Assembly: GCA_038063755.1 (NCBI GenBank)
Contig: JBBTUL010000011.1
Span: 3,946 to 67,945 of the forward strand
Source: Patescibacteria group bacterium
GTDB taxonomy: Bacteria > Patescibacteriota > Minisyncoccia > UBA6257 > 2-01-FULL-56-20
DNA length: 64,000 nt
Direction of reading: 5' to 3'
Shown here in pieces: positions 1 through 61,100 of this stretch (positions are counted from its first letter, which is position 1; every line of letters starts with the position of its first letter). The notes beneath the pieces were generated by a model, which was not told the DNA's origin, made no database searches, and saw nothing but the letters and a program-made list of their open reading frames with translations. The position numbers were made by a program, and so were the translations under genes.

Positions 1-1985
1 CAGGATTTCGAGAAGTGCGCGTGGACGGAAAACTCCGCTCGCTTCGAGAACGAATCGAGATGAGCAGATACAAACAGCACACCATCGAGCTCATCGTCGA
101 TAGAATTCCATCAATCATGGACTTCAAAGACAAGGATAATCGTTTGCGCCTTGCCGAGGCAGTTGAGTCGGCTTTGAAATACGGGAACGACGTTGTGACG
201 ATCGTCGCAGAAGAAGAAGTTTCACTTTCGGCAAAGTTTACTTGTCCAGAGGACGGTTTCTCATTTCCCGAAATTGAGCCACGACTTTTTTCTTTCAATA
301 GTCCTTTTGGCGCCTGCGAGATGTGTCACGGTCTCGGGACGGAAGATCTGTGGTCTGATAAAATCTGCCCTGCATGCGACGGAAGAAGGTTGAAGCCAGA
401 GAGCCTAAGCGTCTTAATACAGGGAAAAAATATCGCACAGACAACCGCATTCTCGATTGTTCAGGCCGAGCAGTTTTTCAAAACAATTAAACTAAAACCA
501 GCGTTTCAGGAGGTTGCCGAGGTACCGCTTCGCGAAATAAGAAGTCGCCTCAAGTTCCTCGTGGATGTTGGTCTCGAATATCTTACGCTTGAAAGAAGAG
601 CGGGAACTCTTTCGGGGGGAGAGGCGCAGCGTATACGGCTTGCCTCTCAGATCGGTTCTCGTCTTGTTGGGACGCTCTACATTCTCGATGAGCCGACGAT
701 CGGATTACACCAGAGAGACAACGATAAACTTATCAAGACATTGCACGAGCTGCGGGATCTTGGAAATACGGTTATCGTCGTTGAACACGATGAGGATACC
801 ATTCGATCGGGTGACTACATTGTCGATTTCGGTCCAGGGGCGGGGGTTCACGGAGGGAAGGTGGTAGCCGAGGGTGAGTTGCCGAGCATCCTTAAGAATA
901 TGAAACAGACATCGCTTACGCTTGACTATCTGCGCGGAAAGAAGAAGATTGCCGTTCCTGAAAAAAGAAGAAAAGTTTCGAAAGATCATGACTATTTAAA
1001 AGTGAGGGATGCGTATGTCAATAACTTACAAAATGTGAATGTCGATATTCCGCTTAGGCGATTTACCGCAATCACCGGTGTTTCAGGTTCAGGGAAGAGC
1101 TCGTTGCTTTACGATGTGGTCTACAAGGTTTTGGCAAATAAATTCAATGGCGCGACGTACAAGGTCAAAGGAGTAAAAGGCATTCTGGGGCTCGAATACG
1201 TGAATCGCGTGGTGAACATCGACCAGTCTGCGATCGGGAGAACGCCTCGCTCAAATCCTGCAACCTACGTCGGTGCATGGACATTTATCAGAGACCTTTT
1301 TACCGCGACAGAAGGTGCTCGAGTGCGAGGATACAAGCCTGGACGCTTCAGCTTTAACGTTCCCGGAGGGCGTTGTGAGAATTGCGAGGGTCATGGAACG
1401 ATTGCGATCGAGATGCACTTTTTACCGACGGTGTATGTTCCTTGCGATGTTTGCAAGGGGAAAAGATTTGACAGAGAAACGCTCGAAGTGGAATACAAAG
1501 GAAAGAATATCTATGAGATTCTTAAAATGACGATTGAAGAAGCGGTAAAGTTTTTCGATGATATTCCATGGTTGCACGATCGATTGACCGTACTTCAAGA
1601 GGTTGGGTTGGGATATCTTGAGTTGGGGCAGTCTGCTACGACACTTTCGGGGGGCGAAGCTCAACGAGTGAAGCTCTCCGCCGAACTCGGTAAGAGAGAC
1701 ACGCGAAAGACGCTTTATCTTTTGGATGAGCCGACGACCGGATTACATTTCGCCGATATCGCGAACCTACTCATAGTTCTCCAGCGACTTGTTGATCGCG
1801 GGAATACCGTGATTGTTATTGAACATAATCTCGACGTTATTAAATCTGCTGATTGGGTCATTGATCTTGGGCCGGAGGGAGGGGATAATGGCGGAAAGAT
1901 CGTTGCCGTTGGAACTCCAGAGGAAGTTTCTATTTGCGCGGGAAGCATAACCGGATCGTATCTGCGGAAGATGTTCAAGAGATAG
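1..1985 (+). CDS. uvrA: Excinuclease ABC subunit A (UvrA), 5-prime truncated by window edge
   Basis: ORF runs from the window start. Two ABC signature motifs LSGGEAQR, a CxxC zinc-finger region, Walker B LYILDEPTIGLH and C-terminal LYLLDEPTTGLH are all UvrA-like. Confidence 0.9.
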   Translation, partial: GFREVRVDGKLRSLRERIEMSRYKQHTIELIVDRIPSIMDFKDKDNRLRLAEAVESALKYGNDVVTIVAEEEVSLSAKFTCPEDGFSFPEIEPRLFSFNSPFGACEMCHGLGTEDLWSDKICPACDGRRLKPESLSVLIQGKNIAQTTAFSIVQAEQFFKTIKLKPAFQEVAEVPLREIRSRLKFLVDVGLEYLTLERRAGTLSGGEAQRIRLASQIGSRLVGTLYILDEPTIGLHQRDNDKLIKTLHELRDLGNTVIVVEHDEDTIRSGDYIVDFGPGAGVHGGKVVAEGELPSILKNMKQTSLTLDYLRGKKKIAVPEKRRKVSKDHDYLKVRDAYVNNLQNVNVDIPLRRFTAITGVSGSGKSSLLYDVVYKVLANKFNGATYKVKGVKGILGLEYVNRVVNIDQSAIGRTPRSNPATYVGAWTFIRDLFTATEGARVRGYKPGRFSFNVPGGRCENCEGHGTIAIEMHFLPTVYVPCDVCKGKRFDRETLEVEYKGKNIYEILKMTIEEAVKFFDDIPWLHDRLTVLQEVGLGYLELGQSATTLSGGEAQRVKLSAELGKRDTRKTLYLLDEPTTGLHFADIANLLIVLQRLVDRGNTVIVIEHNLDVIKSADWVIDLGPEGGDNGGKIVAVGTPEEVSICAGSITGSYLRKMFKR

Positions 1986-2024
1986 GCGTTTTTGTTTCTA
2001 GCCACGGAGGCATATACTTAAGCC

Positions 2025-2303
2025 ATGATTAAAATCGTCGGGAATGATATTTTGCGCTCCGGATCTAAGATTGGCTGGATTGAGTCAAACGATATTTTTG
2101 ACCATAGCGGAAAGAAGCGAGGATATTTTACCGAGAACGATATTTTCGAATACAGTGGGAAGAAAATAGGATGGGTTTTGGGAAACGAAATTCATGCCGT
2201 TGGTGGCAGGGCTATGCGACTTGATGATAATAGAAGAATCGTCTCCGGAGGATCTTACCCCGACATTGTGCGAGCGGCGATACGGCTTATTCTCGGAGAG
2301 TGA
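2025..2303 (+). CDS. Small hypothetical protein with three tandem SGKKIGW / NDIF(D/E)(H/Y) repeats (WG/KWG-like)
   Basis: 92-aa ORF in the uvrA-uvrC gap. Internal repeats GSKIGWIESNDIFDHSGKKRGYFTENDIFEYSGKKIGWVLGNEIH are visible by eye. Confidence 0.4.
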   Translation: MIKIVGNDILRSGSKIGWIESNDIFDHSGKKRGYFTENDIFEYSGKKIGWVLGNEIHAVGGRAMRLDDNRRIVSGGSYPDIVRAAIRLILGE

Positions 2304-2337
2304 TCGTTTACGCCCCACTTTTCCGCAAAGAGAACGG

Positions 2338-3543
2338 ATGCACATGAAGAAGCTTTACGCGAATCTCCCAGAGACTCCAGGCGTCTATCTCTTCAAAGAC
2401 AAAAGAGGAGATTTGCTTTATGTGGGGAAGGCGGCGAGCCTTAAGAAACGAGTCTCGAGTTATTTCTTGCGTCCACATGAAGCGCGAATACAAAGACTCG
2501 TTTCCCTTGTGCGCCATATTGACTATCAAAAGACCGATACGGCGCTTGAGGCCCTGATCCTTGAGGCGGAACTGATAAAGAAAAACCAACCTCCCTTTAA
2601 TGTTCTTGAGAAAGACGACAAATCTTTTCTTTATGTTCAGATAACAGCCGAGGAATTTCCCCGAGTACTTCCGATTCGAGGAAAAGACTTAAAAACGAGC
2701 AAGTTAACGGTTCAATTCGGTCCGTTTACGTCTGCTACAAGCGTGCGACAGGCCCTGACGCTTATTCGCCGCATCTTTCCTTTTCACACACACCTCCCGA
2801 ATGAGGTCGGGCGCATGAAGCGACCATGTTTTAATCATGAGATCGGACTTTGTCCCGGTGTTTGTGCGGGCCTCATATCGAAAAATGCCTACGGGAAAAT
2901 CGTAAGAAACATTAAACTTTTTTTTACCGGCAAGAAAGATCGGATTATTTCATCTCTTACGGCAGATATGCAAAAAGCGGCTCGTTCGCTTGACTACGAA
3001 GGCGCCGCGGATTTAAGAAGAAGGCTTTTCGCGATTCAGCACATACAAGACATAGCTTTTATCGGAGAAAACGAAGTTGGAAGCCCCGATGATTCCAACT
3101 TTAGGATGAGGGTTGAGGGTTATGACATTTCAAACATCTCAGGAGATTCAGCGGTAGGTTCAATGGTTGTTTTTATTAATGGAAAACCTGCTCGGAGTGA
3201 GTATAGAAAATTTAAAATAAAAACCGTGAAAGGTCCGAATGATGTAAAAATGCTCGAGGAAGTTCTTCTTCGGAGATTTCGAAATGCGTGGGAGTTGCCA
3301 AGTCTTATTTTAATCGACGGAGGCCTGGGGCAAGTCGGCATTGCTCAAAAAGTTTTGCGGTTACAAAATCTTGCCATCCCGATTTTAGGGATGATAAAGG
3401 GGCCGAAGCGGAAGAGAGTGGATGTACTCGGTGCCGTTCCCGACGGTGTTAGTCAGAAAACACTTATTCGCGTGAGAGACGAGGCTCACCGATTTGCGAT
3501 TCAATATCATCGAGCGATGCGTCGTGCTAGAATGAGCCAATAA
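2338..3543 (+). CDS. uvrC: Excinuclease ABC subunit C (UvrC), short form lacking the C-terminal (HhH)2 domain
   Basis: GIY-YIG motif GVYLFKDKRGDLLYVGKA at the N-terminus. UVR domain (LDYEGAADLRRRLFAIQ). RNase-H-like endonuclease region (SMVVFINGKPARSEYRKFKIKTV ... LILIDGGLGQ ... RVRDEAHRFAIQYHR). The ORF opens at 2194, but the GIY-YIG region begins at ATG 2338/2344. Confidence 0.8.
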   Translation: MHMKKLYANLPETPGVYLFKDKRGDLLYVGKAASLKKRVSSYFLRPHEARIQRLVSLVRHIDYQKTDTALEALILEAELIKKNQPPFNVLEKDDKSFLYVQITAEEFPRVLPIRGKDLKTSKLTVQFGPFTSATSVRQALTLIRRIFPFHTHLPNEVGRMKRPCFNHEIGLCPGVCAGLISKNAYGKIVRNIKLFFTGKKDRIISSLTADMQKAARSLDYEGAADLRRRLFAIQHIQDIAFIGENEVGSPDDSNFRMRVEGYDISNISGDSAVGSMVVFINGKPARSEYRKFKIKTVKGPNDVKMLEEVLLRRFRNAWELPSLILIDGGLGQVGIAQKVLRLQNLAIPILGMIKGPKRKRVDVLGAVPDGVSQKTLIRVRDEAHRFAIQYHRAMRRARMSQ

Positions 3544-3547
3544 GATC

Positions 3548-5392
3548 ATGTGCGGAATCGTCGGATATCTGGGAAAGGAGCGGGCGTTGCCGATTTTAAT
3601 CGATGGTCTTAAGAATCTCGAATATCGTGGATATGATTCCTCCGGCGTTGTTATTCTCGACAAGAACGGCGCAAGCATCACGCGTTCTGTTGGAAGAGTC
3701 CAAAATCTTGAGGCTCGTCTTGAAGATGGGGGAGTTGAGTTAAACGGAGTAATCGGAATTGCTCACACGAGGTGGGCAACACACGGCAAGGTTTCGGAAG
3801 AGAACGCGCATCCGCATCGTGATTGTCGAGGGCAGATTTTCGTTGTTCATAATGGCATTATCGAGAATTACAAAGAGTTGAAAACAGAACTCGCCAAAGA
3901 AGGCCATCAATTTTTTTCTGAAACCGACACCGAAGTTCTTGCGCATCTCATAGAGAAGCATTACAAGCCGGAGGATGGGGTTACTCTTTTTGTCGCGGTG
4001 AGAAGCGCGCTTCGCGAGATTCGAGGAACATACGGGATAGCGGTCGTTTCTTCCCTTGAGCCGTCGAAGATTATTGCCGCAAGAAACTCGAGCCCTCTTA
4101 TATTGGGAATCGGGGCGACTGGAAATATTGTTGCTTCGGATGCTTCGGCGATCGTACACCAGACAAAAGACGTGGTGTACTTAAAAGATGAAGAAATCGT
4201 TGAGCTAACGGCAGATAATTTTAAAATTGAAACTTTAGGATCGGCTATTACTACGAGAGCTCCCGAAAGACTAGAGTGGGATGCGGAAACCATAAAGAAG
4301 GGTGGGCACGAACACTTCATGCACAAAGAGATTTTTGAAATACCCGAAACGATCAAAAATTCGACGAGAGGAAGAATGATTATCGACGATGGAATGGCGA
4401 AGCTTGGCGGCATCGAGAGCATAAAAGAGAAGCTTCTGGGAATTGAGCGTCTCAAGCTTATTGCCTGCGGGACTGCGTCGTACGCCGCACGTGTCGGAGA
4501 ATACATGCTTGAAGAATACGCCGGGATACCGACCGAGGTTGATATTGGATCAGAGTTTCGTTATCGAAAGCCAATTCTTGATTCAAAGACCGCGCTTGTT
4601 GTCGTTTCTCAGTCCGGGGAAACGGCAGACACTCTCGCTGCGGTGAAGGAGGCAAAGGAGAAAGGCATTCTTACGCTTGGTATTGTAAATGTTGTCGGGT
4701 CAAGTATCGCCCGCGAAGCCGGTGTTGGAATCTACAATCATGCAGGTCCTGAGATAAGCGTTGCCTCTACGAAAGCGTTCGTTTCTCAGCTTTCGGTTCT
4801 CGCACTTCTCACCGTGTTTTTGGGTCGTCAGCGACAGATGTCGCTTGTTATGGGCAAACGCATCCTTGAGGAGCTTTCTCGTTTACCCGAATTGGTTTCG
4901 GTAATTCTCGCGGGCGAGAAACGAATCATCGAAGTCGCAGAAAAATACAAGGATATTGAGCACATAATGTATCTCGGAAGAAAATACAACTACCCGACCG
5001 CTCTTGAGGGGGCGCTGAAACTGAAGGAGGTGACTTATATTCACGCCGAGGGGCTTGCCTCCGGTGAGATCAAGCATGGTCCGATCGCCATGATTGACGA
5101 GCGCTTTCCGACGTTTTTTATTGCGCCGAAGGACAGCGTATATGAAAAAACAGTTTCAAATATGGAAGAGATTCGAGCGCGTGGCGGGAGAATTATCGCG
5201 CTTACCACCGAGGGAAATACCGAACTTGAAAATCTTGCCGAGGACGTACTCTATATTCCGAAGACTCTTGAAATGCTCACCCCCATCCTCGCTGCCGTTC
5301 CGCTTTATCTTTTTGCATATCACATCGCGGTGATGCGCGGTAGAGACGTTGATAAACCGAGAAACTTGGCGAAAAGCGTGACGGTTGAATAG
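3548..5392 (+). CDS. glmS: Glutamine--fructose-6-phosphate aminotransferase (GlmS)
   Basis: Starts MCGIVGY (N-terminal nucleophile Cys). Two SIS domains. 614 aa. Confidence 0.93.
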   Translation: MCGIVGYLGKERALPILIDGLKNLEYRGYDSSGVVILDKNGASITRSVGRVQNLEARLEDGGVELNGVIGIAHTRWATHGKVSEENAHPHRDCRGQIFVVHNGIIENYKELKTELAKEGHQFFSETDTEVLAHLIEKHYKPEDGVTLFVAVRSALREIRGTYGIAVVSSLEPSKIIAARNSSPLILGIGATGNIVASDASAIVHQTKDVVYLKDEEIVELTADNFKIETLGSAITTRAPERLEWDAETIKKGGHEHFMHKEIFEIPETIKNSTRGRMIIDDGMAKLGGIESIKEKLLGIERLKLIACGTASYAARVGEYMLEEYAGIPTEVDIGSEFRYRKPILDSKTALVVVSQSGETADTLAAVKEAKEKGILTLGIVNVVGSSIAREAGVGIYNHAGPEISVASTKAFVSQLSVLALLTVFLGRQRQMSLVMGKRILEELSRLPELVSVILAGEKRIIEVAEKYKDIEHIMYLGRKYNYPTALEGALKLKEVTYIHAEGLASGEIKHGPIAMIDERFPTFFIAPKDSVYEKTVSNMEEIRARGGRIIALTTEGNTELENLAEDVLYIPKTLEMLTPILAAVPLYLFAYHIAVMRGRDVDKPRNLAKSVTVE

Positions 5393-10640: not shown

Positions 10641-13388
10641 GTGAACGTCAAAGCTAAAAAAGCGCTTTCGGAGCCGAATTTTAAGGACTCTGAGTTTGCA
10701 AGTTTCGCGAATAAACTAATCGAACGCGGGATTCTTGAGAAACCCGTTTCGGAGTTCGTTCGTGAATTGAACAAAGAGTCTTTCGGTGGTGATTCTCCGT
10801 GGCGGAGGATCAAGGTTGCCGATCTTACGAAGTCGGTGCTCGATTCTATTATTTGGACGAAGGATCGTCTTGATTTATTGAAGGATCACGTTCGACTTGG
10901 AGTCGAACTTGGTCCGGTCTATAAGATTCTTGCATATATCCCGAAGAAGATGGTTGATGCAAAGGCATCCGATCTTCGGGGAAAGAGCCGCAAGACTATT
11001 TTTCCTGAGCTGTCCGAGCCGGGCGTGGGGAGACTCGCAACCGACGAGGAAATCAAAAAGGGGCACATTGTCCCACTCAAGACATACACGCTAAAGAAGC
11101 CGTACGTTGTTTCGATTCCTGACCCTGAGAAATTCAGAGTGCTTTTCGTGAACGCGCCTCATCTTGGACTCGAATACAATCGAGTTCTTGCGGAGAACTT
11201 TTTGCGAAACGCGCTCGTTCGAGCGGAGAAGAAAAAGTTCGATGCAGTGGTTTTAACGGGTGCTCTTATGTGGCTCGATGCGAGTCGAGCGCATGGACAC
11301 CTTACCACTCACCGGGCGCTTTACTCCGGACTGGATTTTGATCCAGACGCGCTTGACCCTGGATACGGGGAAAAGGCAAAAAAAGTTCGCAAAGAAAAGA
11401 ATCCGAACGTTGTTACCTTCTCGACGCTTAGAGAGCGAGTGAAGATGGCGATGGGTGGATACAGGAAGGTTTTTCTTCTCGACGAGCGGAATCCTGTTTT
11501 CTCGGGTAAGGTCTACGTTTGCTTCGGAAAGCAGGAAGAAGAAATGATCGAGGCCGCGGCCCACGATCACATTCGATACGTCGTAGATAGGATGCGAGGA
11601 AGTGTCGATACCGAAAAGAAGGCCCTCGAGGCCGAGCTTAGATTCAAGTTGAGCGATGGGTCGAGTGGCGGTAAAGGGATTGACGAACTTCGTGAACGTA
11701 TCGACGAGCTCCGTCGTGAGGAGCAGAGAATGATTCAAACGAACGTTGATGTCATTGATAGGCGACGATTCGTTGACATCATTCGGACCCTCCTGATTTC
11801 CTGGTATAAGGAGGTAATTCCAAACTGTGAATTTGTTGCGCAAGGATCGACGGTTTTCTCGATCGGTGGAAAAACGATCCAAATCCTTCAAGAGGGCGAT
11901 GATTCGCTTTCCCGCGCGAAAATCGATAATGCCATGAAGGGGAGTTCGGGAAGAGCCCTTGGCGGGCGACTCTCGGACTTTGTTCTTGCTGCTGGACCGT
12001 ACAGTGTCGACGCTCGCGAGGGAATCATTGAGCGGGTTTCCGGGAAGAACCGTGAAACGACGCGTGTCTGGACGCTTCCTGTGGCAATCGACGTTGATTA
12101 TTTGCGGAATGCTCGACCGGAGCTTGTCCGGCGCGCTTCACCGCTCGAGAGATTGTTGGGAGATGCGGGCTTTAGTCCGGGAGTTTTCGAGCTTGGTTTT
12201 GTAAATGGTATTTGGGATTGCAGCGTTATCTCTCCAAGGACTTTCGGACACAAGGCACCGAAGGTGGTGGGTAGCACCCCATATATCTATCTCATTGCTG
12301 ATGGAGACTATCATTATGGTGCTCCTGCGAAAGACTGGATTTTTGATCCGGTAACCAGGTCCTATCTTCCTATTGAAGTTGCGGCATCGGAACTTTTCAT
12401 GAGAGAGTTCGTTGCCAAAGGAAAGGACCTTCCATTTTCTGGGTGGCATTGCGGAGGCGACTTCCTCCACGGGAAGCACTTCCCAACGCACCAGGCGAGA
12501 AATCCTGGAACGTTACCCTACGCGACCATCGCGAAAAGATTGAGCGAGGCCAGGAAGGATTCCGGCAAGGTTCAAGAGGTTTTGAATCTTATCGATAGTC
12601 AACTTCAGAAGAGGGGAGAGGTGTGGATGAACTCTCAGCTCGAAGAAGCGATCAGGATATCGATTCTTCCGAGAATTCCCTTCTTTGCTGCGGTTCTGAA
12701 GCACGCGAAGGATGCAGGAGTTCGGATGCGAGGGACCGCGGAGGTTTATACTGGGTCTTCTGATCTTGCGTCGATAGATATGGGATGTCTTAACGTTTTG
12801 GGCGGCAATCACGCGGAAAAGACGACTTTCGGAGAGTTTCTCGAAAGTCCTGTGATTGCGTGGATGATTCGCCTTGCTCTTGTCCCGAGCGGGTTTAGCC
12901 TCGAAGAGCTGGAACGGCTCGTTCGGGCGCCGCTTTTCGGACCGGAGAACATTGGATATGGTCTGCTCTCTGTGCCGGATGGGTACGAGTGGGCGATTCA
13001 TATTCGCCACGATCCTCCAGTCAAAGGTCCGCAGAACGGATGGACCTTGAGGGGAGTCGCGGAGAAATATCGCGAACGCGGTGACTATCCAAGGATTTTC
13101 ACTGGGCGGCACATGATCGCAATGAGTTCGGATATTCACCGAGCTGGAGCAAGTTTCGGACCTGATATCCATGTTGTTTCTGTGCCGGCGTGCACTGATG
13201 GCGATGCCTACGGTGAGCGTTTTGGCATGAGTCGGAACAACATCGGGTTTACCGTGGTCGGACTTCCGGTTCATGGACCGCTGGCTGGTCCTGTCCGGGT
13301 AATTCAGTTCACTCACGATATTTTGAGGAAGTATTTTGCGAATCCTTGGTCGATCGACTGGGACACCTTGTTCCGGGGAGCGATCTAG
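10641..13388 (+). CDS. Large hypothetical protein (915 aa); C-terminal half with ordered calcineurin-like metallophosphoesterase-like motifs
   Basis: GTG start 7 nt after AAGGAG. No recognisable family overall. Motifs in order: DGDYHYG (~12300), GGDFLHG (~12455), GGNHAE (~12801), HIRHD. An N-terminal weaker echo is present (FVNAPHLG ... FDAVVLTGALMWLD). Confidence 0.7.
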   Translation: MNVKAKKALSEPNFKDSEFASFANKLIERGILEKPVSEFVRELNKESFGGDSPWRRIKVADLTKSVLDSIIWTKDRLDLLKDHVRLGVELGPVYKILAYIPKKMVDAKASDLRGKSRKTIFPELSEPGVGRLATDEEIKKGHIVPLKTYTLKKPYVVSIPDPEKFRVLFVNAPHLGLEYNRVLAENFLRNALVRAEKKKFDAVVLTGALMWLDASRAHGHLTTHRALYSGLDFDPDALDPGYGEKAKKVRKEKNPNVVTFSTLRERVKMAMGGYRKVFLLDERNPVFSGKVYVCFGKQEEEMIEAAAHDHIRYVVDRMRGSVDTEKKALEAELRFKLSDGSSGGKGIDELRERIDELRREEQRMIQTNVDVIDRRRFVDIIRTLLISWYKEVIPNCEFVAQGSTVFSIGGKTIQILQEGDDSLSRAKIDNAMKGSSGRALGGRLSDFVLAAGPYSVDAREGIIERVSGKNRETTRVWTLPVAIDVDYLRNARPELVRRASPLERLLGDAGFSPGVFELGFVNGIWDCSVISPRTFGHKAPKVVGSTPYIYLIADGDYHYGAPAKDWIFDPVTRSYLPIEVAASELFMREFVAKGKDLPFSGWHCGGDFLHGKHFPTHQARNPGTLPYATIAKRLSEARKDSGKVQEVLNLIDSQLQKRGEVWMNSQLEEAIRISILPRIPFFAAVLKHAKDAGVRMRGTAEVYTGSSDLASIDMGCLNVLGGNHAEKTTFGEFLESPVIAWMIRLALVPSGFSLEELERLVRAPLFGPENIGYGLLSVPDGYEWAIHIRHDPPVKGPQNGWTLRGVAEKYRERGDYPRIFTGRHMIAMSSDIHRAGASFGPDIHVVSVPACTDGDAYGERFGMSRNNIGFTVVGLPVHGPLAGPVRVIQFTHDILRKYFANPWSIDWDTLFRGAI

Positions 13389-13491
13389 GTCGCAGATATT
13401 CGTACAGCCGAGATTTTCTCGGCTGTTTTTTATTGACAAAAAAAGCGATTCAGCTTTAAGCTGTGGTCAGCAATCTCCTTTCGGAGGGGAC

Positions 13492-14628
13492 ATGAAAATT
13501 TGCGGCAGAGATATCGGTATTCAAGGGGTCATCACGATATTCCTGATCTTCCTCGGCACGGTCTCACTGGTTGTATCGAGTACGCCGACCGAGATCCTGA
13601 TCCTGATGCTCTTGGCCTACGCCTCGAATGCGAGCTATTCGATGGTGAGCCGGTCTGCGGTGAGAACAAGCGTGCTTTACCACGCGCTTACCGTCTTCTT
13701 AAACAACACCTTGTTCTATTTGGTGTTGCACCGGCTTGTCCAGAACGATCTGAGCATTGTGCTCTTCATTCCGTATACCGTAGCCACGGTTTTCGGGAGT
13801 CAGAATGGCTCTCTCGCTTCGATGAGGATAGAGGAGAGGTTTGGCATCAAGGCGAACCCGGACAAGAAGGCGAAGCCTACGCCCCAGTCAGTCCTCGCTC
13901 AGAAGCTGTTGCTTGGTTTCGTGGGAGTGTTGGGTATCGTTGCGGCGGTTTTTACGCGCGACTTGAAGACCGCAGCGTTCGTCGCATTCCTCGCCCTCGC
14001 GGACAACCTTACCTTCTCGGTTTTGCGGCGCTCCAGGAATACCAACAACGTTGCATATCACATCATTGCATCGATCGCGAAAGGTACGGTGTGGTATTTG
14101 CTGTTCCGAGAACTCTCGCTTTCAAAAATGGCGCTCGGATTCTTTCCGCAGTACTGTTTCGGGTCCGTGCTTGGCGGGCTGATCGGTCAAGACGTGTCGT
14201 TGCGGATTGAGCGGTTGATAGGTGCATCCGCGGACGACCACCTAAAGTCCAAAGCGAAGCACTTCATGCCGACCGTTTCCCTCGCCATCCTTTCCCTTGG
14301 GGTGGTCGCGATCTCGTTTTTTGCGAACGAACCGAGCTTTGCCGTCTACCTTGCCTTGCTCTCCGGAGCCCAACAGGTGTCTTTCACCATCGTGAGTCGC
14401 TCCCGAAACCGAGGCCACATGGGCTACCACATGCTTGCTTCGATCTTGAGCAATGGGGTGTGGTTCTTGACGTTTCGCCAGGCGAACCTGGAACATTGGT
14501 CCCCAGACCTCTATCTACCATTTGCCCTCGGCGGAACTGCCGGAAGCATTAGCGGAGCCGGGATTTCGATGCAGATCGAACGCAAGCTTGGTATTTCCTC
14601 TGACGCGCATCTTGCGAAGCCTGCATAG
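13492..14628 (+). CDS. Integral membrane protein built from three ~115-aa internal repeats
   Basis: Each repeat has two TM helices, a (S/T)xVSRS(A/R)...Y(H)...L motif, then RIEERFGI / RIERLIGAS / QIERKLGIS. The ORF opens at 13336, but the likely start is ATG 13492 (MKICGRD). Confidence 0.65.
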   Translation: MKICGRDIGIQGVITIFLIFLGTVSLVVSSTPTEILILMLLAYASNASYSMVSRSAVRTSVLYHALTVFLNNTLFYLVLHRLVQNDLSIVLFIPYTVATVFGSQNGSLASMRIEERFGIKANPDKKAKPTPQSVLAQKLLLGFVGVLGIVAAVFTRDLKTAAFVAFLALADNLTFSVLRRSRNTNNVAYHIIASIAKGTVWYLLFRELSLSKMALGFFPQYCFGSVLGGLIGQDVSLRIERLIGASADDHLKSKAKHFMPTVSLAILSLGVVAISFFANEPSFAVYLALLSGAQQVSFTIVSRSRNRGHMGYHMLASILSNGVWFLTFRQANLEHWSPDLYLPFALGGTAGSISGAGISMQIERKLGISSDAHLAKPA

Positions 14629-14634
14629 TGATAC

Positions 14635-14660
14635 AACCCGACTTGCGTCGGGTTTTTTGT
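14635..14660 (+). terminator. Rho-independent terminator (AACCCGAC-ttgc-GTCGGGTT + T6)
   Basis: Perfect stem followed by TTTTTTG, just past the membrane-protein stop. Confidence 0.65.
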
Positions 14661-15468: not shown

Positions 15469-15560
15469 GGTTGATATTCACCAGTTGCCCGACATTTGTC
15501 GGGCACTTTAATTTTGTTATACTAGGGGCAGAAGCTTGAAAAGACAGAAAGGACTATGCG

Positions 15561-18254
15561 ATGGAAGCGGATCTTTCAAAGGTTCCGAAGAGATTGGTTG
15601 TTATGAACTGGAGTAACCCAGGAGGCAGTCCGAAGGTCTGCTTTCCTGGAGTACGGGCAGTACTTCCGTTCCCAGATTTGAGCGGTGCCCCGAGTATTGA
15701 AAAAGGGGTTGCCAAAATGAAAGAAGACGGGGCTTTTCTCGTCCAGTATCAGAAAGAAGACGTATCGTTTCCGGTTTCTCTCATTGTTCTCATCAAAGAA
15801 GCGAAGAACGTGGAAAAAGACGGAAGAAAAATCACGTTGATCATCGGAGAATTTACTCGAAGAGTTCTGTTGTCATCTCATTGCGATGAGGAGTTCGGAA
15901 GCAGTTATGAGTGGACTCCTGCGGAAGAGACTTGCTTTTCCGAAGAAGAGTTTGGCAGTCAGGAGACACAGGAAATGATTCAAGGTGTCGCAAGGTTAAG
16001 CGAAGAGCTTTTGGACCTCATGCAGCAGGGGAGCCCCAGTATTTTGCCCGAAATTTGGAAGCTTTGCGAAAAAAGAGAGTCAATCGGGGAATTTCTCGAC
16101 AATATTTCTTCGCCGCTCTTGAGCGTCTGCTCGATGAGTAAGGAAGTTGCCGATGCAGCCGAGGCGCTCATCTGTGAGCTGGGACATAAAAAGCGACTTG
16201 AAATTTTGTCTTTCATATATCCCATTGCCATTGATCTTCTGAAGAAGGAGAAGGATAGCAGCGAGACCTTTGATGGGCTTGTCGCGATTCCGTTTGACGT
16301 CAATGACGGGACAGAGCTTATCATGTTCCCCGGAACTCCATTTATGACCTCGCTTGGTGTAAAGGGATCGCTTTCCGAGGAAAGACTTCTTAAAAAGATA
16401 AGAGAAGACAAAGAAATGGTCTTCTATACCCCGAAAGACGGCATGATTCCGCAGATCGGAATTTTGGTTCATGTCAGGACGTCTCGGAATAACGGACTTA
16501 GATCAATTTCCTGCCGCGCGCTTCGACGCGTTGAAATACTTGATTACCAAATAGATCAAGGGATGTTTGGCGTAAAACACGGCGACGTAGATGAAATTCA
16601 GCTTGGTGAAAAAGAATTTCTAAGTGCCGAAGTGCAGAAAAAGATTTCCGATCTCAAGGCTTTTAGCGAAAGATTTCTGAGTTTTTTCAGGGCGGATGAA
16701 TCGGGTGGAGATGTTGAAATAGACGAACGGCATATCAAGAATTCGGAAAGCGTCGAGAGTCTTGGGAAATACCTTGACGTCCTTGCGCAACAACTTGTTT
16801 TTATTTTTCCACCCATAGACTCGATAATTACATCATCGCTTCGGGAACTGATTTGCGAGCTTGATCAAAAGAAGCGGATCGAGATTCTCTTGAACGCCTA
16901 TCCGCTCGCCATAGAATTTGCGAAAAAAACGGTAAGCGGGGAAAGCTTGATCATTGCTCCTTCGCCTGATCTTCTTGCGAATCCTTCGCAGCATGCCGAA
17001 CGACGAACCGCGTTCAAGCTCGAGGATTTTGCAAATGATTCCGCAGAAGTGGAAGTTCCTCTCTCGGATAAGCCTGGTCAACGACATCGTTCTCCAGAAG
17101 TCGAGACGTTCTATCGTTTTCTTCGGAAGAACGTTATTGGCGAAGGCGGACAAAAGCGTGCGATCAAGCGCCTTACTACTAGATTTGAGGTTTATCGCTC
17201 GCTTTTCCGGAAGCACCGCAAGCCGATAGGAACATTTCTATTTTTGGGTCCCTCGGGAGTCGGCAAGACAGAGCTTGCCGAACGGGTGGCAGAATTTCTT
17301 CTTGGACAGAAAACGTCTGTCACAAAAATTGCCTGCGGTGAGTATACAGAAGGGCATCAGGTTTCGAGGCTCATCGGCTCGCCGCCCGGATACGTTGGAT
17401 CGGACGATCGGCCGCTCCTTGCTCAGGAGCGAGTTGATAGGTATGGCATTGAGGCCGAAATCAAATGGCTGCAATCTCAACTAAACGAACCGAATTTGCC
17501 ACCGGAGAAAGAGAAGGTTTTGCTCGAGAGACTGAAAATTTTCGGATCTCATCTCGGGCACAAGCAGGGTTCGCGGTCAGGGGAGAGCTCAAAAGCAATC
17601 CGTACGGCGGATCTTGCGAGGGCCTATCCGGTTCTCTCGGTTCTCCTTGTCGACGAAATTGACAAAGCGCACGAAAATCTTTTAAAGTTTTTTCTTGAGG
17701 TTTCTTCAAAGGGGGTCGCGCAGCTTTCGAACGGTGAGGAAGTTGACCTTTCGAACTCGTTCATTATCTTCACGAGCAATCATGGATCGAAAAAAATCGC
17801 ACAGATTCTTCATGGAAAGGTCACGAGAGTAGGTTTCGGAGACGGCCACCAAGAAAAGTCTGTTTACGAGGTTGCCATGGATGAACTGAGGAGAGTCCTT
17901 CCGCCGGAACTTATCGGACGGATTCAAGATGACATTGTTGTTTTTTCGGAGTTGAGCCACGAAGAGATGCGGAAGATTCGAGACCTGAGATTTTCCGAGC
18001 TCGATCTGCAAATTCGGGCGAAGATGCCCAATCTTTCGGTCGAGTTTGATGGGGCTGCAAAAGAATTCATCTTTTCGAAATCCTCCGATCACCCGGAGTA
18101 CGGGGCACGAGTCCTGGAGGCGAAGATTGATCACTATGTCATCGAACCTTTAGCAGAACAGCTGAATAATGGCGAGCTAAAGGACGGCGACAAGGTTTTG
18201 GGGGTCCTCCTTGCGGGGGACGAGGAGATGGAGATTCGTTTCAAGAAGGTGTAA
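15561..18254 (+). CDS. Atypical AAA+ protein: novel ~520-aa N-terminal region plus a single ClpA/ClpB D2-like ATPase module
   Basis: Walker A FLFLGPSGVGKTELAE, GSPPGYVGSDD, Walker B LLVDEIDKAHENLLKFFLEV, sensor IIFTSNHGS and the D2 small domain are all ClpA/B-like. A ~60-aa coiled-coil insert sits between Walker A and Walker B. The N-terminus has two LICEL(G/D)xKKR(L/I)EIL..YP(I/L)AI repeats. Confidence 0.8.
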   Translation: MEADLSKVPKRLVVMNWSNPGGSPKVCFPGVRAVLPFPDLSGAPSIEKGVAKMKEDGAFLVQYQKEDVSFPVSLIVLIKEAKNVEKDGRKITLIIGEFTRRVLLSSHCDEEFGSSYEWTPAEETCFSEEEFGSQETQEMIQGVARLSEELLDLMQQGSPSILPEIWKLCEKRESIGEFLDNISSPLLSVCSMSKEVADAAEALICELGHKKRLEILSFIYPIAIDLLKKEKDSSETFDGLVAIPFDVNDGTELIMFPGTPFMTSLGVKGSLSEERLLKKIREDKEMVFYTPKDGMIPQIGILVHVRTSRNNGLRSISCRALRRVEILDYQIDQGMFGVKHGDVDEIQLGEKEFLSAEVQKKISDLKAFSERFLSFFRADESGGDVEIDERHIKNSESVESLGKYLDVLAQQLVFIFPPIDSIITSSLRELICELDQKKRIEILLNAYPLAIEFAKKTVSGESLIIAPSPDLLANPSQHAERRTAFKLEDFANDSAEVEVPLSDKPGQRHRSPEVETFYRFLRKNVIGEGGQKRAIKRLTTRFEVYRSLFRKHRKPIGTFLFLGPSGVGKTELAERVAEFLLGQKTSVTKIACGEYTEGHQVSRLIGSPPGYVGSDDRPLLAQERVDRYGIEAEIKWLQSQLNEPNLPPEKEKVLLERLKIFGSHLGHKQGSRSGESSKAIRTADLARAYPVLSVLLVDEIDKAHENLLKFFLEVSSKGVAQLSNGEEVDLSNSFIIFTSNHGSKKIAQILHGKVTRVGFGDGHQEKSVYEVAMDELRRVLPPELIGRIQDDIVVFSELSHEEMRKIRDLRFSELDLQIRAKMPNLSVEFDGAAKEFIFSKSSDHPEYGARVLEAKIDHYVIEPLAEQLNNGELKDGDKVLGVLLAGDEEMEIRFKKV

Positions 18255-18308
18255 TAATCCGGCATGAAAATGCCGGTTTTTTATTTCAAAATCAGCGATT
18301 TTCATCCG

Positions 18309-18337
18309 TTGACAAGCATGATGTCATCGGCTACTAT
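18309..18337 (+). promoter_or_regulatory. Sigma70-like promoter TTGACA-N17-TACTAT for rpsP
   Basis: Consensus -35 with 17-nt spacer. The -10 ends 10 nt before ATG 18348, implying an (almost) leaderless mRNA. Confidence 0.5.
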
Positions 18338-18347
18338 GGCTTCCATA

Positions 18348-18671
18348 ATGCTTGCTATAAAACTTCAGCGAATCGGAAAAAAGAAACAGCCAAGCTACCG
18401 TATCGTGGTGGCGGAAAGGCGATCGAAACTCGGAGCTCCTCCGGTTGAAGATATGGGGTCATACAACTCGGTTACCAAAAAAGGATCTGTGGCAAATGAC
18501 CGTGTTTTGTATTGGGTCTCAAAAGGCGCAAAACCGACGACAACCGCGCACAACCTTCTCGTTCGTCTCGGCGCGCTTTCTTCTCCAAAGATTGCGGTAA
18601 AAATGAAGAAAAAAGCGGTCTTGGAGGAAACCGCAAAGGCGCCGGAGATGTCTCCAGAGAAGGCCGAATAG
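18348..18671 (+). CDS. rpsP: 30S ribosomal protein S16
   Basis: MLAIKLQRIGKKKQPSYRIVVAERRS matches the S16 N-terminus. The ORF opens at 18264, but the S16 homology starts at ATG 18348. Confidence 0.8.
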   Translation: MLAIKLQRIGKKKQPSYRIVVAERRSKLGAPPVEDMGSYNSVTKKGSVANDRVLYWVSKGAKPTTTAHNLLVRLGALSSPKIAVKMKKKAVLEETAKAPEMSPEKAE

Positions 18672-26859: not shown

Positions 26860-28383
26860 ATGAAAGATTTATCCGAACAGCAGAAGATCGGGCGTTTTAT
26901 TGCGGATCTTCGGGAGCATGCACACATGACGCAGGGGGATTTGGCAAAAGCACTCTCTACAAGCCAGAGTGCGGTTGCGCGGATGGAGGCGGGAGAGCAA
27001 AACTTCTCGACCGAAATGCTCGCGAAAGTTTCCCGCGCGCTTGGGCGGGATATCGTTACACTTTCTTCCGGGGCGATGAACTTTCGCATCGAAGGAGGGA
27101 AGAAGCTTTCCGGAAAAGTCACTACCAACACCTCAAAGAATTCTGCGGTTGGGCTTTTATGCGCCTCGCTCTTAAATAGAGGAAGGACTGAGTTCCGCGA
27201 TATGCCTCGCATAGAAGAGGTGAATCGGATCGTCGAGGTGCTCATCTCAATTGGCGTATCTATAAAATGGCTAAACGAAAACGATCTCGAAATAATCCCG
27301 CCGAAACGATTTTCAATGGATAATCTTAACGTGCAGGCGGCGATGAAGACGCGAAGTGTTCTGATGCTTCTGGGACCGCTCATACATGAGCTTCAGAACT
27401 TCGTGATTCCCTATCCGGGTGGATGCAAGCTTGGTCGGAGGTCGGTTCGCCCGCATCTTTTTGCGCTGCAGAAGCTTGGCGTAAAGATCGGTGCCTCGAA
27501 GGGCAATTATCATGTTTCGGTAAAGAAGTTAAAGCCAGCGAACGTTGTCCTTTACGAGGCGGGAGATACTGTCACCGAAAATGCCCTCATGGCGGCCGCG
27601 CGTATTCCTGGAGTGACGACCCTCAAGTTTGCATCGGCAAACTACATGGTTCAGGATGTTGCTCGCTTCATTGAGGCGCTCGGCGTGAGGATTGATGGAA
27701 TCGGGACATCGACGCTTGTCGTCCATGGGAAGCAGGACATCCAAAAATCGGTTGTTTTTTATCCAAGCGAGGATCCAATCGAATCAATGCTTTTCCTTTC
27801 TCTTGCCGCGACGACGAACTCATCAATCGTGATTGAGCGATGCCCGATTGATTTTTTGGAGCTAGAACTTTTGAAATTGGAAAAGATGGGGTTCAAATAT
27901 AAAATCCTTCGACGTTACAAATCAAAGAATGAGATTACGAATCTTGTGGATATCAAAACATTTTCGTCAAAACTTATTGCGCTTGAAGAGAAGATTCATC
28001 CGCTTCCTTCCGCTGCCGGCATAAATATAGACAATTTACCGTTTTTCGTGCCAGTCGCGGCCTGCGCGAAGGGAACAACGCTTATCCATGACTGGGTGTA
28101 TGAGAATCGAGCTATCTATTATATGGAGCTTCAAAAGCTCGGAGTAAATATCATCTTAGCTGATCCGCATCGAGTCTACGTTGAGGGACCAACCGAGTTT
28201 CGGGCGTCCGAGGTGGTGTGCCCTCCGGCTCTCCGCCCCGCAGTTATTATACTTATCGCTATGATTGCTGCTCCTGGTGTTTCGATTTTGCGAAATGTTT
28301 ATTCGATCAACAGAGGGTACGAGGACTTGGTAAACCGCTTGAACAGGCTCGGAGCAAGGGTTGAGATTTTGCACGGGATATAA
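26860..28383 (+). CDS. murA: UDP-N-acetylglucosamine 1-carboxyvinyltransferase (MurA) with N-terminal XRE-type HTH domain
   Basis: Residues ~5-65 form a canonical Cro/C1 HTH (IGRFIADLREHAHMTQGDLAKALSTSQSAVARMEAG). The remaining ~430 aa align with MurA (KLSGKVTTNTSKNSAVGLLCASLL...). Confidence 0.88.
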   Translation: MKDLSEQQKIGRFIADLREHAHMTQGDLAKALSTSQSAVARMEAGEQNFSTEMLAKVSRALGRDIVTLSSGAMNFRIEGGKKLSGKVTTNTSKNSAVGLLCASLLNRGRTEFRDMPRIEEVNRIVEVLISIGVSIKWLNENDLEIIPPKRFSMDNLNVQAAMKTRSVLMLLGPLIHELQNFVIPYPGGCKLGRRSVRPHLFALQKLGVKIGASKGNYHVSVKKLKPANVVLYEAGDTVTENALMAAARIPGVTTLKFASANYMVQDVARFIEALGVRIDGIGTSTLVVHGKQDIQKSVVFYPSEDPIESMLFLSLAATTNSSIVIERCPIDFLELELLKLEKMGFKYKILRRYKSKNEITNLVDIKTFSSKLIALEEKIHPLPSAAGINIDNLPFFVPVAACAKGTTLIHDWVYENRAIYYMELQKLGVNIILADPHRVYVEGPTEFRASEVVCPPALRPAVIILIAMIAAPGVSILRNVYSINRGYEDLVNRLNRLGARVEILHGI

Positions 28384-58192: not shown

Positions 58193-61100
58193 GTGCCCCA
58201 TGACCACATGAGCATTTTCTGGGAGAAAAACAAAGAGGGAAACATGATCGACGCGTTGGGTCGGAGGAAGAGCCTCTCTTTTATTTTCTCGCTGGGCCGC
58301 CGAAATACCCGTGGTGTGGTTGACCTCCGACTGCCCTTTCGCCGACGATATCCCGTCATAGCCGCATCCCTGCTCCTTGTAACCGTCATAGCCGCTTTCG
58401 GCGCGCGATCACTCCTTACGAAGGCGGAGGTGACCGATTTTCATCCGCTTACGTGTCTCGGGAGCTGGGAACATACATCCCGAGCCGAGGGGAAACCAGA
58501 AGCTCTTAACGATGCCACACTTCTCACGGCGGATGTTTCCGCGATATTTACGCAACCGACGAGCCAAATTTTTTGCGGCAACTTCATTCCTGATGATTTT
58601 AAAGAAGCAGGCACGATAACGAGTGTGGGATTGACCTTTACGTGGAAGATTGAAGGAGGGGATCAAGAGGGAAGTGTTGACCAATCCTCATCGGAAGAAA
58701 CGGTATTGCCTCCGGCAGGCGAAACGAATTTGGAGATGCCGACATCATCGGCACTTCTCGCGCCGAAGATAAAATTCTTCAGAGTTGCAAAAGCCGAGGA
58801 GGTGGTTCCACCGGAGCCGATGCCCGCGCCGGTTGAGACCGTCCCCGAAGAAACCCCGACGCCCACCCCAACCCCAGAGCTGCCTTCACCTTCCCCGGAA
58901 GTTATTCAAGACGGCGTGTCCGAACCGGAGGCGGTTCCTGTCGAAGAAAGCATCGTTCCGGAAAATGACGCTACTCCCGACGCGACATCTGGAGAAGTCC
59001 TCGGAGAATCCCAAGAGGCGGTTCCCGTAACCTCTTCGACGGAGAATGATGCGGGTAATGGTGTCGTGGATGAAAACCAAAACCCGGAAATTCCGTCGTT
59101 TGCTCCTTCCACTCCGCCGTTTCTCCGCGTGAGCTACAGTCTTGACGGTACGAACTGGTTTTCACTCGCCGACGTTTCCAGGGAGATGCTTGCCCAACTT
59201 ACGGTTTCCATTCCGCTTACTTCGTGGAGCGATCTAAAAAAACTTCAGATAGGGATCGAGGGAGTCCCTGCGGCGCTTCCGGTGCTTCCTAGAGTTCTCC
59301 TCGACGGGATGCTTCTCGAGGTGCACTACGAGATACCGCCGCTTTTCACGAACAACGAGCCGGACGAAGATATTGTTCCCGCTCCACAGGGATCGCTTCT
59401 TCCCGTTGTTCCCGTACTGCCTGCCATGGAAGGAGCGAGCACCGGCACTCCGCCTTCTTTCGGAGGAGATGAGTCGCCGAGTTTCGAGCTTGATATGGAT
59501 TCGCTCACGCCTATTCCGGAAAGTGAACTGCCTCCGCTTTCGTTTCACCATCCCGCGACAAGGAACTCTCTTTTTGGAAAAATAGCGAAGTGGTTGGGGG
59601 TCACCGGTTCCGCATTCGCACAGCAAAACGGAGAAACCCCGCCGCCGCTCCCCACGGCAGAAAACCCGATCATCGCGAGAGTTTTTAACCACGGGGACGA
59701 TGAGTTGGATATCCTTCCCCAGGTACTTCTTTCCAACAACCGCCTTAGGGTTAATGTTCCTCAACCGGCGGATCAGTTTGCTCCCGGGAAATATCTCCTC
59801 CGCGTCTGGGTGTGGCGCAACGGGAACATTTATTACACGGAAAACTCGTTTACCTGGGGCGTTCTCGCGATGAATCCGAACAAATTCGTTTATCTTCCGG
59901 GAGAGACATCGAAGATTGGCATCGCGGTTCTCGACGAGGGAGGTGACATGGTCTGCGATGCCAATGTCCGGCTCGAGATCACCACGCCCTCCAGCACGGT
60001 GCGCACGCGCGCGACGAGTGACGGAAGTATTGTCGTGAACGAGGAATGTAATCTCAAGGGATTTACGGAGAGACCGGACTACGAAACCGATTATCAAGTA
60101 GAAGAGCCGGGTATCTATCAGACGAGGCTTACGGCGACAACGGAGAACGGAACGCATACCATATACGATTCATTCGAAGTGCGTGAGTCAGTTTCATTCG
60201 ATATCGAGCGAAAATCGGCCACGCGCATTTACCCTCCCACACCGTATCCCGTCCGCATTGCGATCAAGACAACAGAGGCGTTTTCCGGAGATATCGAAGA
60301 GCGCGTACCGCTCTCCTTCGAGGTGAAGCACATATCCCACGGAGGACAAGTTGTCCGCCGGAACGAGGACCAGGTTATTCGATGGGCGGTCGATCTCCCT
60401 GCGGGAGGAACAATCGAGCTTCTGTACGATTATCTTGCTCCCGAAGTAAGTCCCCAGTTCTACCTTCTCGGCCCCCTTCGGGTCGGTACTTTCTCCGAGA
60501 CCCGGCGTTGGCAGATCGCCGCCGACGCGATCGCTTCAAACTCGGCGAGGACGTTCTACAGCGTTACCAATAATGCGGGAAGACTCATGTGGGCTACGGG
60601 AGCATCGAATTCAACGGGAGCCGAAATCGCCGGTCCGGTCGGAACGGCTGCCACCTCCTCTTTTGTGAAAGCGGCACATGGACCGACCAGGGACGAGATT
60701 TTGGCCGGAATGATAAAACGTGATGGACTGCTTGCATTGTCGCTCGTTATCGGAAACCAGGATGCCGCAGGGGATGCGGTGCTTCAGTTTGATCAGGCAA
60801 GCGTCACTTCGGCTCAAGCATGCGATGCGGTGACATTCGGTTCCTGTTGGCGCGCATTTGATATCGCTTACGAACAACTATCGGGAGAGGGAATGGTCGC
60901 ATTTGCGAGCACGACGGCATCGCGGCTCGCGTATCGTACCTGGGACGGTACAAATTGGTCTCCGGCGACAACGAGCGCTCCGAGCGTTGTGAATATGGGG
61001 GGTACCGGCGCAATCCGGTGGGTAAGGCTTATTCCAAGAGGGGAAATGCTCAAAGGAAGCCGCTCGGACGAAATACTTGTTATCACTTCGGATGCCAACT

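Follow-up and report, generated by a model that had tools for sequence, protein, structure and literature searches.

AAA+ proteases are usually seen as fixed families (Lon, ClpXP, ClpAP/CP and HslUV), each with its own recognition domain, motor and peptidase. Recognition of substrates falls to Lon-N domains (PMC8835725), and other quality-control enzymes, such as the LONRF ligases, make use of the domain as well (PMC10226518). LGF/IGF loops are treated both as the element that docks onto ClpP and as a discriminator between ClpC and ClpB (PMC10149685; IGF loops are reviewed in PMC9035409), and in ClpI of Actinomycetota the two forms ClpIa and ClpIb show that whether LGF is present or missing predicts coupling to ClpP (PMC10149685). 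Here we analyse a stretch of 64,000 nucleotides, referred to below as the window, from a Patescibacteria group bacterium (assembly GCA_038063755.1, contig JBBTUL010000011.1, positions 3,946 to 67,945), and in it a gene for an 897-residue protein that appears to mix modules across these families. The protein carries a complete Clp D2-type ATPase with a candidate ClpP-docking loop, preceded by two tandem domains that profiles relate to the substrate-binding domain of Lon. The features of the gene are collected in Table 1.

A complete Clp D2-type ATPase module

A single, complete AAA+ module of Hsp100/Clp D2 type fills residues ~516-897 together with its D2-small lid, and all its catalytic motifs are intact. 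Pfam matches are confined to residues ~520-880, with none in residues 1-520, and consist of AAA_2 (1.2e-32, 113.7 bits against a cutoff of 27), split into two stretches, and ClpB_D2-small (46.4 bits against a cutoff of 21.9). The best matches among PDB sequences are the second nucleotide-binding domain (NBD2) of ClpB and ClpC, at E ~4e-41; residues 520-620 and 689-879 align with them, but residues 621-688 do not. The catalytic and pore elements fall in conserved or invariant columns in alignments with 9 and then with 25 Clp homologues. An AlphaFold2 (AF2) model of residues 496-897, built on an alignment of homologues, has a predicted local distance difference test score (pLDDT) of 79.9 and a predicted template modelling score of 0.75. 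In a Foldseek search of the PDB with this model, the top matches are the ClpC D2 rings of ClpC-ClpP complexes (9a66, 8xon, 9if4, 9rai) and ClpB NBD2 (4fd2, 4lj5), at E ~1e-26.

The 897 residues hold one P-loop only, and therefore no D1 is present; the linker ahead of the module is too short to hide one. A Pfam scan of the protein gave no match to Clp_N (PF02861) or UVR. Scans with family models gave none to Lon_C or a Lon-type AAA module, and the protein ends after D2-small. The NCBIfam models for ClpB, ClpA and ClpV score 169-187 bits, far below their cutoffs of 885-1232, and the protein belongs to none of the ClpA/B/C/E, ClpX, Lon and HslU families. An earlier note on this DNA, made from its letters and reading frames, had described a stand-alone D2-type module without D1 or Clp_N and with an insert inside its core; that description holds, and every motif it quoted was found. 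It had also considered single-ring Clp-D2-like ATPases uncommon, which overstates their rarity, as the module also matches structures of human CLPB/Skd3 and two PADLOC models, PDC-M37B and DolB.

Two tandem domains related by profile to the Lon N-domain

Self-comparison reveals a whole-domain tandem duplication in the N-terminal half of the protein (residues 12-229 against 240-457, 29% identity, E 3e-16). Two ~30-residue repeats had been noticed there before. They are present (~25 residues each, at 203-227 and 430-454, 227 residues apart), but they are not isolated elements: they are the C-terminal helices of the ~220-residue tandem domain copies. By direct sequence search this half is an orphan. 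An exhaustive phmmer search with residues 1-510 against 1.84 billion cluster representatives returned only the protein itself, database searches with a two-repeat profile found no match, and scans against Pfam, PDB sequences and PHROG, run with the whole half and with the single repeats, gave nothing meaningful.

A relationship to Lon is hinted at by three collinear motif blocks: L-x-x-P...FPG, G...R-R-V, and L-I-C-E-L-x-x-K-K-R-[LI]-E-I-L, the last of which was compared with V-L-E-M-S-D-V-N-E-R-L-E-Y-L of Lon. For a profile comparison, 80 Lon loci from metagenomes were collected and yielded 71 complete N-regions; the resulting profiles hold 71-74 Lon N-domains, their sampled members match the LON_substr_bdg family (PF02190) with E between 1e-40 and 1e-49, and the E. 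coli Lon probe is identical to PDB 3LJC. Aligned to this family with hhalign, the two-repeat profile scores 57-63 with a probability of 95-96%, at P 2.4e-8 with copy 1 first and P 2.6e-9 (probability 96%) with copy 2 first. The match is collinear over ~190 columns (7-219 of the repeats, aligned with 6-199 of E. coli Lon) and spans both the beta-rich and the helical subdomain. With the profile restricted to retrieved sequences, the probability is still 92-95% (P 2.6e-8 to 7.9e-7), and over all of these comparisons the score is 49-63, the probability 92-96% and P 7.9e-7 to 2.6e-9. Controls stay far below these scores: column shuffles give 13.5 +/- 2.2 (maximum 21.5), permutations of 15-column blocks 16.2 +/- 2.3 (maximum 23.1), the reversed profile 11.6 and an unrelated Clp profile 12.7. 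Each repeat alone also aligns collinearly with the family, copy 1 at P 0.008 (columns 7-227) and copy 2 at P 7e-4.

Our conclusion is that residues 1-470 probably consist of a tandem pair of Lon-N-type domains, both highly diverged, a homology predicted from profiles. The earlier note had taken the N-terminal domain to be novel, with one segment faintly like Lon-N, and had allowed that the region might instead align to a well-known domain in a ClpC or ClpE that had lost its D1. Its remark on Lon-N was right and understated, since both whole repeats match the family at scores that no control approaches (23 at most, against 49-63), and novelty is no longer the best description. The region does align, by profile, to a well-known domain, which is Lon-N and not Clp_N, and the protein is not a ClpC or ClpE minus D1.

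The degree of divergence has a parallel in the same phylum. Locus L045, one of those fetched for comparison, encodes a bona fide Patescibacteria LonA of 840 residues (positions 1936-4458), the N-domain of which reaches 18.1 bits against PF02190, under the cutoff of 28.7, and 23.6 in hhalign against the same Lon-N profile, no better than a single repeat of our protein. A word-indexed homologue search seeded with this N-domain gave no matches.

A candidate ClpP-docking loop

The tripeptide VGF sits between sensor-1 and the Arg finger, in a flexible loop of ClpC length (residues ~751-767) that is non-helical in the AF2 model. VGF shares an alignment column with the LGF, MGF, VGF, FGF and IGF of ClpC-type homologues, a tripeptide that ClpB-type rows lack. 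The loop alignment has 9 gap positions to ClpB and about one to the Streptomyces ClpC1 of the ClpC1P1P2 complex. Among the 25 homologues, [LIVMF]G[FL] occurs in this loop in 10 of 11 ClpC/A/E-type rows (the type being defined by Walker-A spacing), in none of 10 ClpB-type rows and in none of 4 membrane-anchored ClpB-like rows from the candidate phyla radiation (CPR). VGF is also the sole [LIVMF]-G-[FL] in the protein, where ~3 would be expected overall. The statement that no ClpP-binding IGF/L loop is visible therefore needs correcting, as VGF at residues 757-759 aligns with the ClpC-type tripeptides in a loop of their length.

ClpP, ClpX and Lon were sought in the window and in the fetched loci, and one Lon was found, that of L045. 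The literature on ClpP in CPR bacteria yielded nothing specific; mentions of ClpP in PMC10768705 were considered and set aside, as they concern the host bacterium. Among the Clp-like matches, four proteins of ~840-890 residues (P0022, P0025, P0027 and P0029) have N-terminal transmembrane segments and no docking tripeptide, and in three of them the D1 Walker A is non-canonical (GDSGSGRKS in P0022, GEAGSGRKS in P0025 and GEPGSGRKS in P0029). From their sequences these four appear to be membrane-anchored ClpB-like unfoldases.

A helical insert after the pore-1 loop

The ~60-residue insert that had been read between Walker A and Walker B is real and measures 58 residues (616-673). It has no counterpart in the 25 Clp homologues or in the ClpB and ClpC structures, and a Pfam scan of it gave no match. 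AF2 models it as a helix-turn-helix hairpin with helices at residues 620-641 and 648-662 (pLDDT 67-82). The I-domain of HslU follows the GYVG pore-1 loop and comes before the Walker B strand, and HMMER aligns residues 521-650 of our protein to HslU 13-140 (PDB 1g3i), reaching the start of the I-domain. By this analogy the insert probably projects from the substrate-entry face, about where the HslU I-domain emerges, and it may be an extra element for substrate contact, regulation or oligomerisation.

The gene and its candidate expression signals

The reading frame is uninterrupted, and its placement in the earlier note (15561-18254, 897 residues, + strand) is exact. The GC content of the gene, overall and at third codon positions (GC3), is similar to that of its neighbours. 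Upstream, a promoter-like site overlaps the terminator-like hairpin of the preceding gene; a Shine-Dalgarno-like sequence precedes the start codon, and a strong hairpin with a T-run follows the stop codon. Read from these signals, the gene looks like its own transcription unit. An identical 897-residue protein is found on independent ENA, Logan and NCBI assemblies from Hainich groundwater (well H41, 0.1-um fraction), among them the metagenome-assembled genome (MAG) GCA_964357965.1. The open reading frame is therefore a real gene and not an assembly chimera.

Table 1. Features of the gene for the 897-residue protein; nucleotide positions are those of the window, and residues are those of the protein
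Feature	Residues	Nucleotides	Strand	Basis or remark
Terminator-like hairpin closing the HAD-hydrolase gene		15486-15505	+	Consensus scan and sequence; pattern match only
Promoter-like site TTGTCG-16-TATACT with TG extension		15496-15523	+	Consensus scan; pattern match only
Shine-Dalgarno-like AAAGGA, 7-8 nt before ATG		15548-15554	+	Read from sequence
Complete coding sequence, 897 residues	1-897	15561-18254	+	Reading frame unbroken; stop TAA 18252-18254
Lon-N-type domain, copy 1 (predicted; matched core 7-227)	1-239	15561-16277	+	Duplication and hhalign
FPG motif of copy 1	28-30		+
Terminal helix of copy 1, LICELGHKKRLEILSFIYPIAIDLL	203-227		+
Lon-N-type domain, copy 2 (predicted)	240-470	16278-16970	+	Duplication and hhalign
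FPG motif of copy 2	256-258		+
Terminal helix of copy 2, LICELDQKKRIEILLNAYPLAIEFA	430-454		+
Acidic, Pro-rich linker, no detectable domain	~471-515	16971-17105	+	Modelled without regular structure, low pLDDT
AAA+ large subdomain, Hsp100/Clp D2 type		17106-17936	+	Pfam AAA_2, PDB sequences, AF2 and Foldseek
Walker A, GPSGVGKT	563-570	17247-17270	+
Pore-1 loop, GYVG	610-613	17388-17399	+
58-residue insert, after the pore-1 loop and ahead of the helix before Walker B	616-673	17406-17579	+	Alignments and model
Walker B, LLVDEID	695-701	17643-17663	+
Sensor-1, FTSN	737-740	17769-17780	+
R-V-G-F-G with candidate ClpP-docking tripeptide VGF (757-759)	756-760	17826-17840	+	Alignment
Arg finger, LIGRI	784-788	17910-17924	+
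D2-small (lid) domain		17952-18251	+	Pfam ClpB_D2-small, 4.1e-12
Sensor-2, YGARV (GAR)	847-851	18099-18113	+
Intrinsic-terminator-like hairpin CCGGCATGAAAATGCCGG and T-run		18259-18286	+	Starts 5 nt past the stop codon; strong hairpin

Genomic surroundings and host lineage

The neighbours all lie on the same strand and are housekeeping genes: uvrA/C, glmS, typA, a HAD hydrolase, rpsP, khpA, efp, mnmA, rpsB and tsf, together with recO, glyQS, mreB, a class II ribonucleotide reductase and type IV pilus genes. A DUF5671 protein, typical of the CPR, is also encoded in the surroundings. The nearest species genomes in GTDB are MAGs of Patescibacteria/Parcubacteria (Paceibacterota), and their MnmA is just 46-59% identical, so that the lineage is deep-branching and poorly sampled. 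In 80 Patescibacteria species genomes, a synteny check through mnmA showed nothing related to the protein, in whole or in part, close to mnmA or rpsP. A full-length homologue search over the 8000 candidates sharing most words returned the identical copy and otherwise canonical ClpC and ClpB, although it could have missed a distant orthologue consisting of D2 and insert. The earlier note had proposed to look in MAGs for homologues and for partners among their neighbours. The neighbours here are housekeeping genes, and no protease partner was seen in the window or in the ~10 kb to either side of it on the source contigs.

Several features of the surroundings are of interest in their own right. 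The mechanically called rpsP frame (18264-18671) begins at an ATG within the terminator hairpin of the gene upstream; the true start is probably the ATG at 18348 (MLAIKLQRIGKKK...), which is preceded by a promoter-like TTGACA-17-TACTAT at 18309-18337. The encoded S16 protein has a C-terminal extension of ~45 residues rich in Lys, Ala and Glu. Two consecutive terminator-like intergenic hairpins (14637-14652 and 15488-15503), one after a membrane-protein gene and one after the HAD gene, have the common core CCCGAC-N4-GTCGGG, which matches twice in the window against 0.00 expected by chance and may be a terminator motif typical of the lineage. The membrane protein (13486-14628, +, ~380 residues) has no Pfam match; in its translation, three apparent internal repeats can be made out by eye, of the form (S/R)RS(A/R)xxxxxx-YH-xxxxxxxxxxx(F/W)(Y/F)L-x-(L/F)-(H/F)R. 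Two genes upstream of the Lon-N/D2 gene, a 915-residue reading frame (10641-13388, +) without a Pfam or PADLOC match encodes a large lineage-specific protein. Kinship of this protein with the 590-residue phosphoesterase-like gene that precedes Lon in locus L045 was considered and rejected (E 0.06).

Further downstream, a 507-residue protein (26860-28383, +) has the unusual architecture of an N-terminal HTH_3 (XRE-type) domain and a full EPSP_synthase-family (MurA/AroA-type) domain. Over the first ~38 kb almost every gene is read from the + strand; GC skew is positive to ~50 kb (window 1-50000) and then about zero or negative, a pattern consistent with strong co-orientation of genes and replication on one replichore. 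At ~58 kb the GC content rises from ~0.47 to 0.54-0.56, and a 1707-residue frame without a Pfam match starts there (58193-63316, +). Past this frame, the source contig (L162, 8351-18333) holds five more genes without a Pfam family, and the region from ~58 kb may be a compositionally distinct island of, perhaps, surface proteins.

Discussion

The reading we favour, to which we would give about an even chance, is a functional single-ring AAA+ unfoldase made of two strongly diverged Lon-type substrate-binding domains in tandem, a short and flexible linker and one D2 module with its lid, probably coupled to ClpP. By homology, its subunits would assemble into a hexamer, and the twelve Lon-N-type domains would form a crown that captures, as in Lon, proteins that are misfolded or carry a degron. 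Driven by ATP, the GYVG pore loops would then thread the polypeptide through the ring, and on the opposite face the VGF loops would dock into the hydrophobic pockets of ClpP, where the substrate would be degraded. The net effect would be that Lon-style recognition feeds a Clp-style motor and protease. That the protein is a working Lon/Clp hybrid in the full sense, with a duplicated Lon head on a ClpC-type D2 motor feeding ClpP and an HslU-like hairpin at the pore entrance, and that it adds to or replaces canonical Lon, ClpX or ClpC in a streamlined Patescibacteria genome, strikes us as possible but doubtful.

Several results weigh against a ClpP-coupled unfoldase with Lon-type domains, and they bear on different parts of it. 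As to its partner and its ring, clpP is absent from the window and from ~10 kb on either side of it on the source contigs (~85 kb in all), a hydrophobic-Gly-Phe tripeptide is expected by chance 0.13 times in this 38-residue loop (a probability of ~13%), and some Clp classes include members that have the motif and members that lack it (ClpI; PMC10149685). The first two of these points favour its chief rival, a stand-alone unfoldase or disaggregase that acts without a peptidase, like ClpB, ClpIb or CLPB/Skd3, and in which VGF is fortuitous or vestigial; we think this a real, if less than probable, explanation. The module is about equally similar to the D2 of ClpB and that of ClpC (NCBIfam ClpB 187 against ClpA 169 bits; PDB sequences 144 against 143 bits), and the matches to human CLPB show that single-ring disaggregases of D2 type exist. 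It is the loop that speaks for ClpP, being of ClpC length and not ClpB length, with a tripeptide that, among the homologues sampled, separates ClpC/A/E-type from ClpB-type proteins almost without exception and occurs nowhere else in the 897 residues. D2 modules alone, as in ClpA and ClpB, are not always stable hexamers, a further point against a working single ring. For the N-terminal half, the Lon-N assignment is based solely on profile-profile comparison. The Pfam scan of the repeats gave no LON_substr_bdg match at E <= 10, a custom Lon-N hidden Markov model (HMM) run with filters off gave them 0.3 and 1.2 bits, marginally above shuffles (p ~0.02-0.03), and hhalign of the repeats against a single Lon sequence was not significant. 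In pairwise Smith-Waterman comparisons of the repeats with three Lon N-domains, two of six reached p < 0.005 against shuffles (repeat 1 with E. coli Lon, p ~0.001; repeat 2 with the Patescibacteria Lon, p ~0.004), a weak test, because even a pair of true Lon N-domains gives no more than a noise-level score. AF2 of the full protein without an alignment gave no confident three-dimensional model (pLDDT 31.8, ~30 in the N-terminal half). These results, and the lack of any Pfam, PDB-sequence, PHROG or database homologue of residues 1-510, would suit a truly novel adaptor domain of ~520 residues whose resemblance to Lon-N is convergent or spurious. We consider this unlikely, given a profile match that is full-length, collinear, obtained with either repeat first and with retrieved sequences alone, and far outside all controls, given that each repeat aligns alone, and given that an undoubted Lon N-domain from Patescibacteria is no easier to detect.

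Two other explanations concern the gene as a whole. An ATPase of anti-phage defence or of a mobile element, akin to PDC-M37B or the DolB of Dodola, is suggested by PADLOC matches (PDC-M37B 121 bits, E 1.3e-35; DolB 55 bits on the AAA+ module) and by the gene being a lineage-specific singleton. The matches cover the generic AAA_2 module only, at scores below those of the ClpB and ClpC models; the housekeeping flanks, from the HAD hydrolase and rpsP to rpsB and tsf, and the 915-residue protein upstream have no PADLOC match, GC and GC3 agree with the neighbours, and the N-terminal half has no PHROG signal. We rejected a defence system on its housekeeping context and hold this origin to be very improbable. 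The singleton state and the lack of an orthologue in database and synteny searches, on which purifying selection could be demonstrated, also count against a functional unfoldase and would be expected of a decaying or non-functional paralogue, or of an artefact of assembly or annotation. Such an origin is hard to reconcile with an unbroken 2.7-kb reading frame with every catalytic motif intact, two 29%-identical domain copies both in frame, plausible expression signals and an identical sequence in several independent assemblies from a single site, and we give it very little credence.

Activity together with ClpP would make the protein a natural experiment in which Lon-N domains work on a foreign motor, and a compact single-ring scaffold on which to study the delivery of substrates by N-domains. 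If the hybrid is real, Lon-N would be a portable recognition module that drives a heterologous unfoldase-peptidase in bacteria, much as the LONRF ligases suggest it to be in eukaryotes. N-terminal recognition domains evidently diverge far in CPR bacteria, where a relative's genuine Lon N-domain already falls under the Pfam threshold; many 'orphan' N-termini of CPR genomes may therefore be diverged known domains, and they deserve profile-profile checks. These considerations come from a singleton in an ultra-small bacterium of one groundwater MAG lineage, with roles predicted from sequence and models.

Comparison with known AAA+ systems

No description of a Lon-N/Clp-D2 fusion was found in the searchable literature, domain-architecture databases not being covered. 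The closest motor is that of ClpC, ClpA and ClpE. Our protein shares with their D2 the AAA_2 module with GYVG, sensor-1, Arg finger, GAR sensor-2 and D2-small lid, as well as a loop of ClpC length with hydrophobic-Gly-Phe at the docking position, and its best structural matches are ClpC D2 modules within ClpC-ClpP complexes. It differs from them in lacking D1, the M-domain or UVR, and Clp_N, and in having the 58-residue insert and the two predicted Lon-N-type domains. From the ClpB disaggregase it differs in having neither D1 nor M-domain and in the presence of a docking-type loop.

The closest counterpart of the N-terminal half is LonA, in which a LON_substr_bdg-type N-domain (a PUA-like beta subdomain and a helical subdomain closed by the helix L-x-E-L-x-x-x-x-R-L-E-x-L) stands before an AAA+ ring of the HCLR clade, as the two predicted domains do here. 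Unlike in LonA, the putative N-domain occurs twice in tandem and is extremely diverged, the long helix and three-helix bundle of Lon are missing, the AAA+ module is of Clp D2 type, and there is no Lon_C Ser-Lys protease domain.

Among single-ring unfoldases, ClpX too has one AAA+ ring; our protein would act, like it, as a one-ring activator of ClpP, and VGFG resembles the IGFG of the E. coli ClpX docking loop. The ClpX model of NCBIfam gives only 20 bits against a cutoff of 359, however, the zinc-binding N-domain is missing, and the module is of AAA_2/D2 type. HslU likewise is a single-ring unfoldase that carries an accessory element past the pore-1 loop and ahead of the Walker B strand, but the insert has 58 residues against ~130 in the I-domain and no sequence similarity to it, an HslV-type C-terminal docking motif is lacking, and the HslU family model (TIGR00390) reaches 16.5 bits against a cutoff of 362, so that only the insertion site is analogous. 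In mitochondrial CLPB/Skd3, too, one Hsp100 ring of D2 type is joined to an N-terminal domain for substrates or interactions that is not a Clp domain. It is a much weaker match (PDB E ~1e-18) than the D2 of bacterial ClpB and ClpC; Skd3 carries ankyrin repeats and no Lon-N domains, and it works without a peptidase.

Two bacterial cases are comparable in other ways. ClpI is, like our protein, a non-canonical Clp-type unfoldase defined bioinformatically, but it differs in its two rings and in an N-domain like that of Clp. Like our module, PDC-M37B and DolB are stand-alone D2-like ATPases, but they are shorter (~375-520 residues), lack Lon-N domains and belong to defence contexts. Set beside all of these, the 897-residue protein is best regarded as a domain-shuffled unfoldase of Hsp100/Clp type, an unusual re-mix of known parts and not a new kind of machine.

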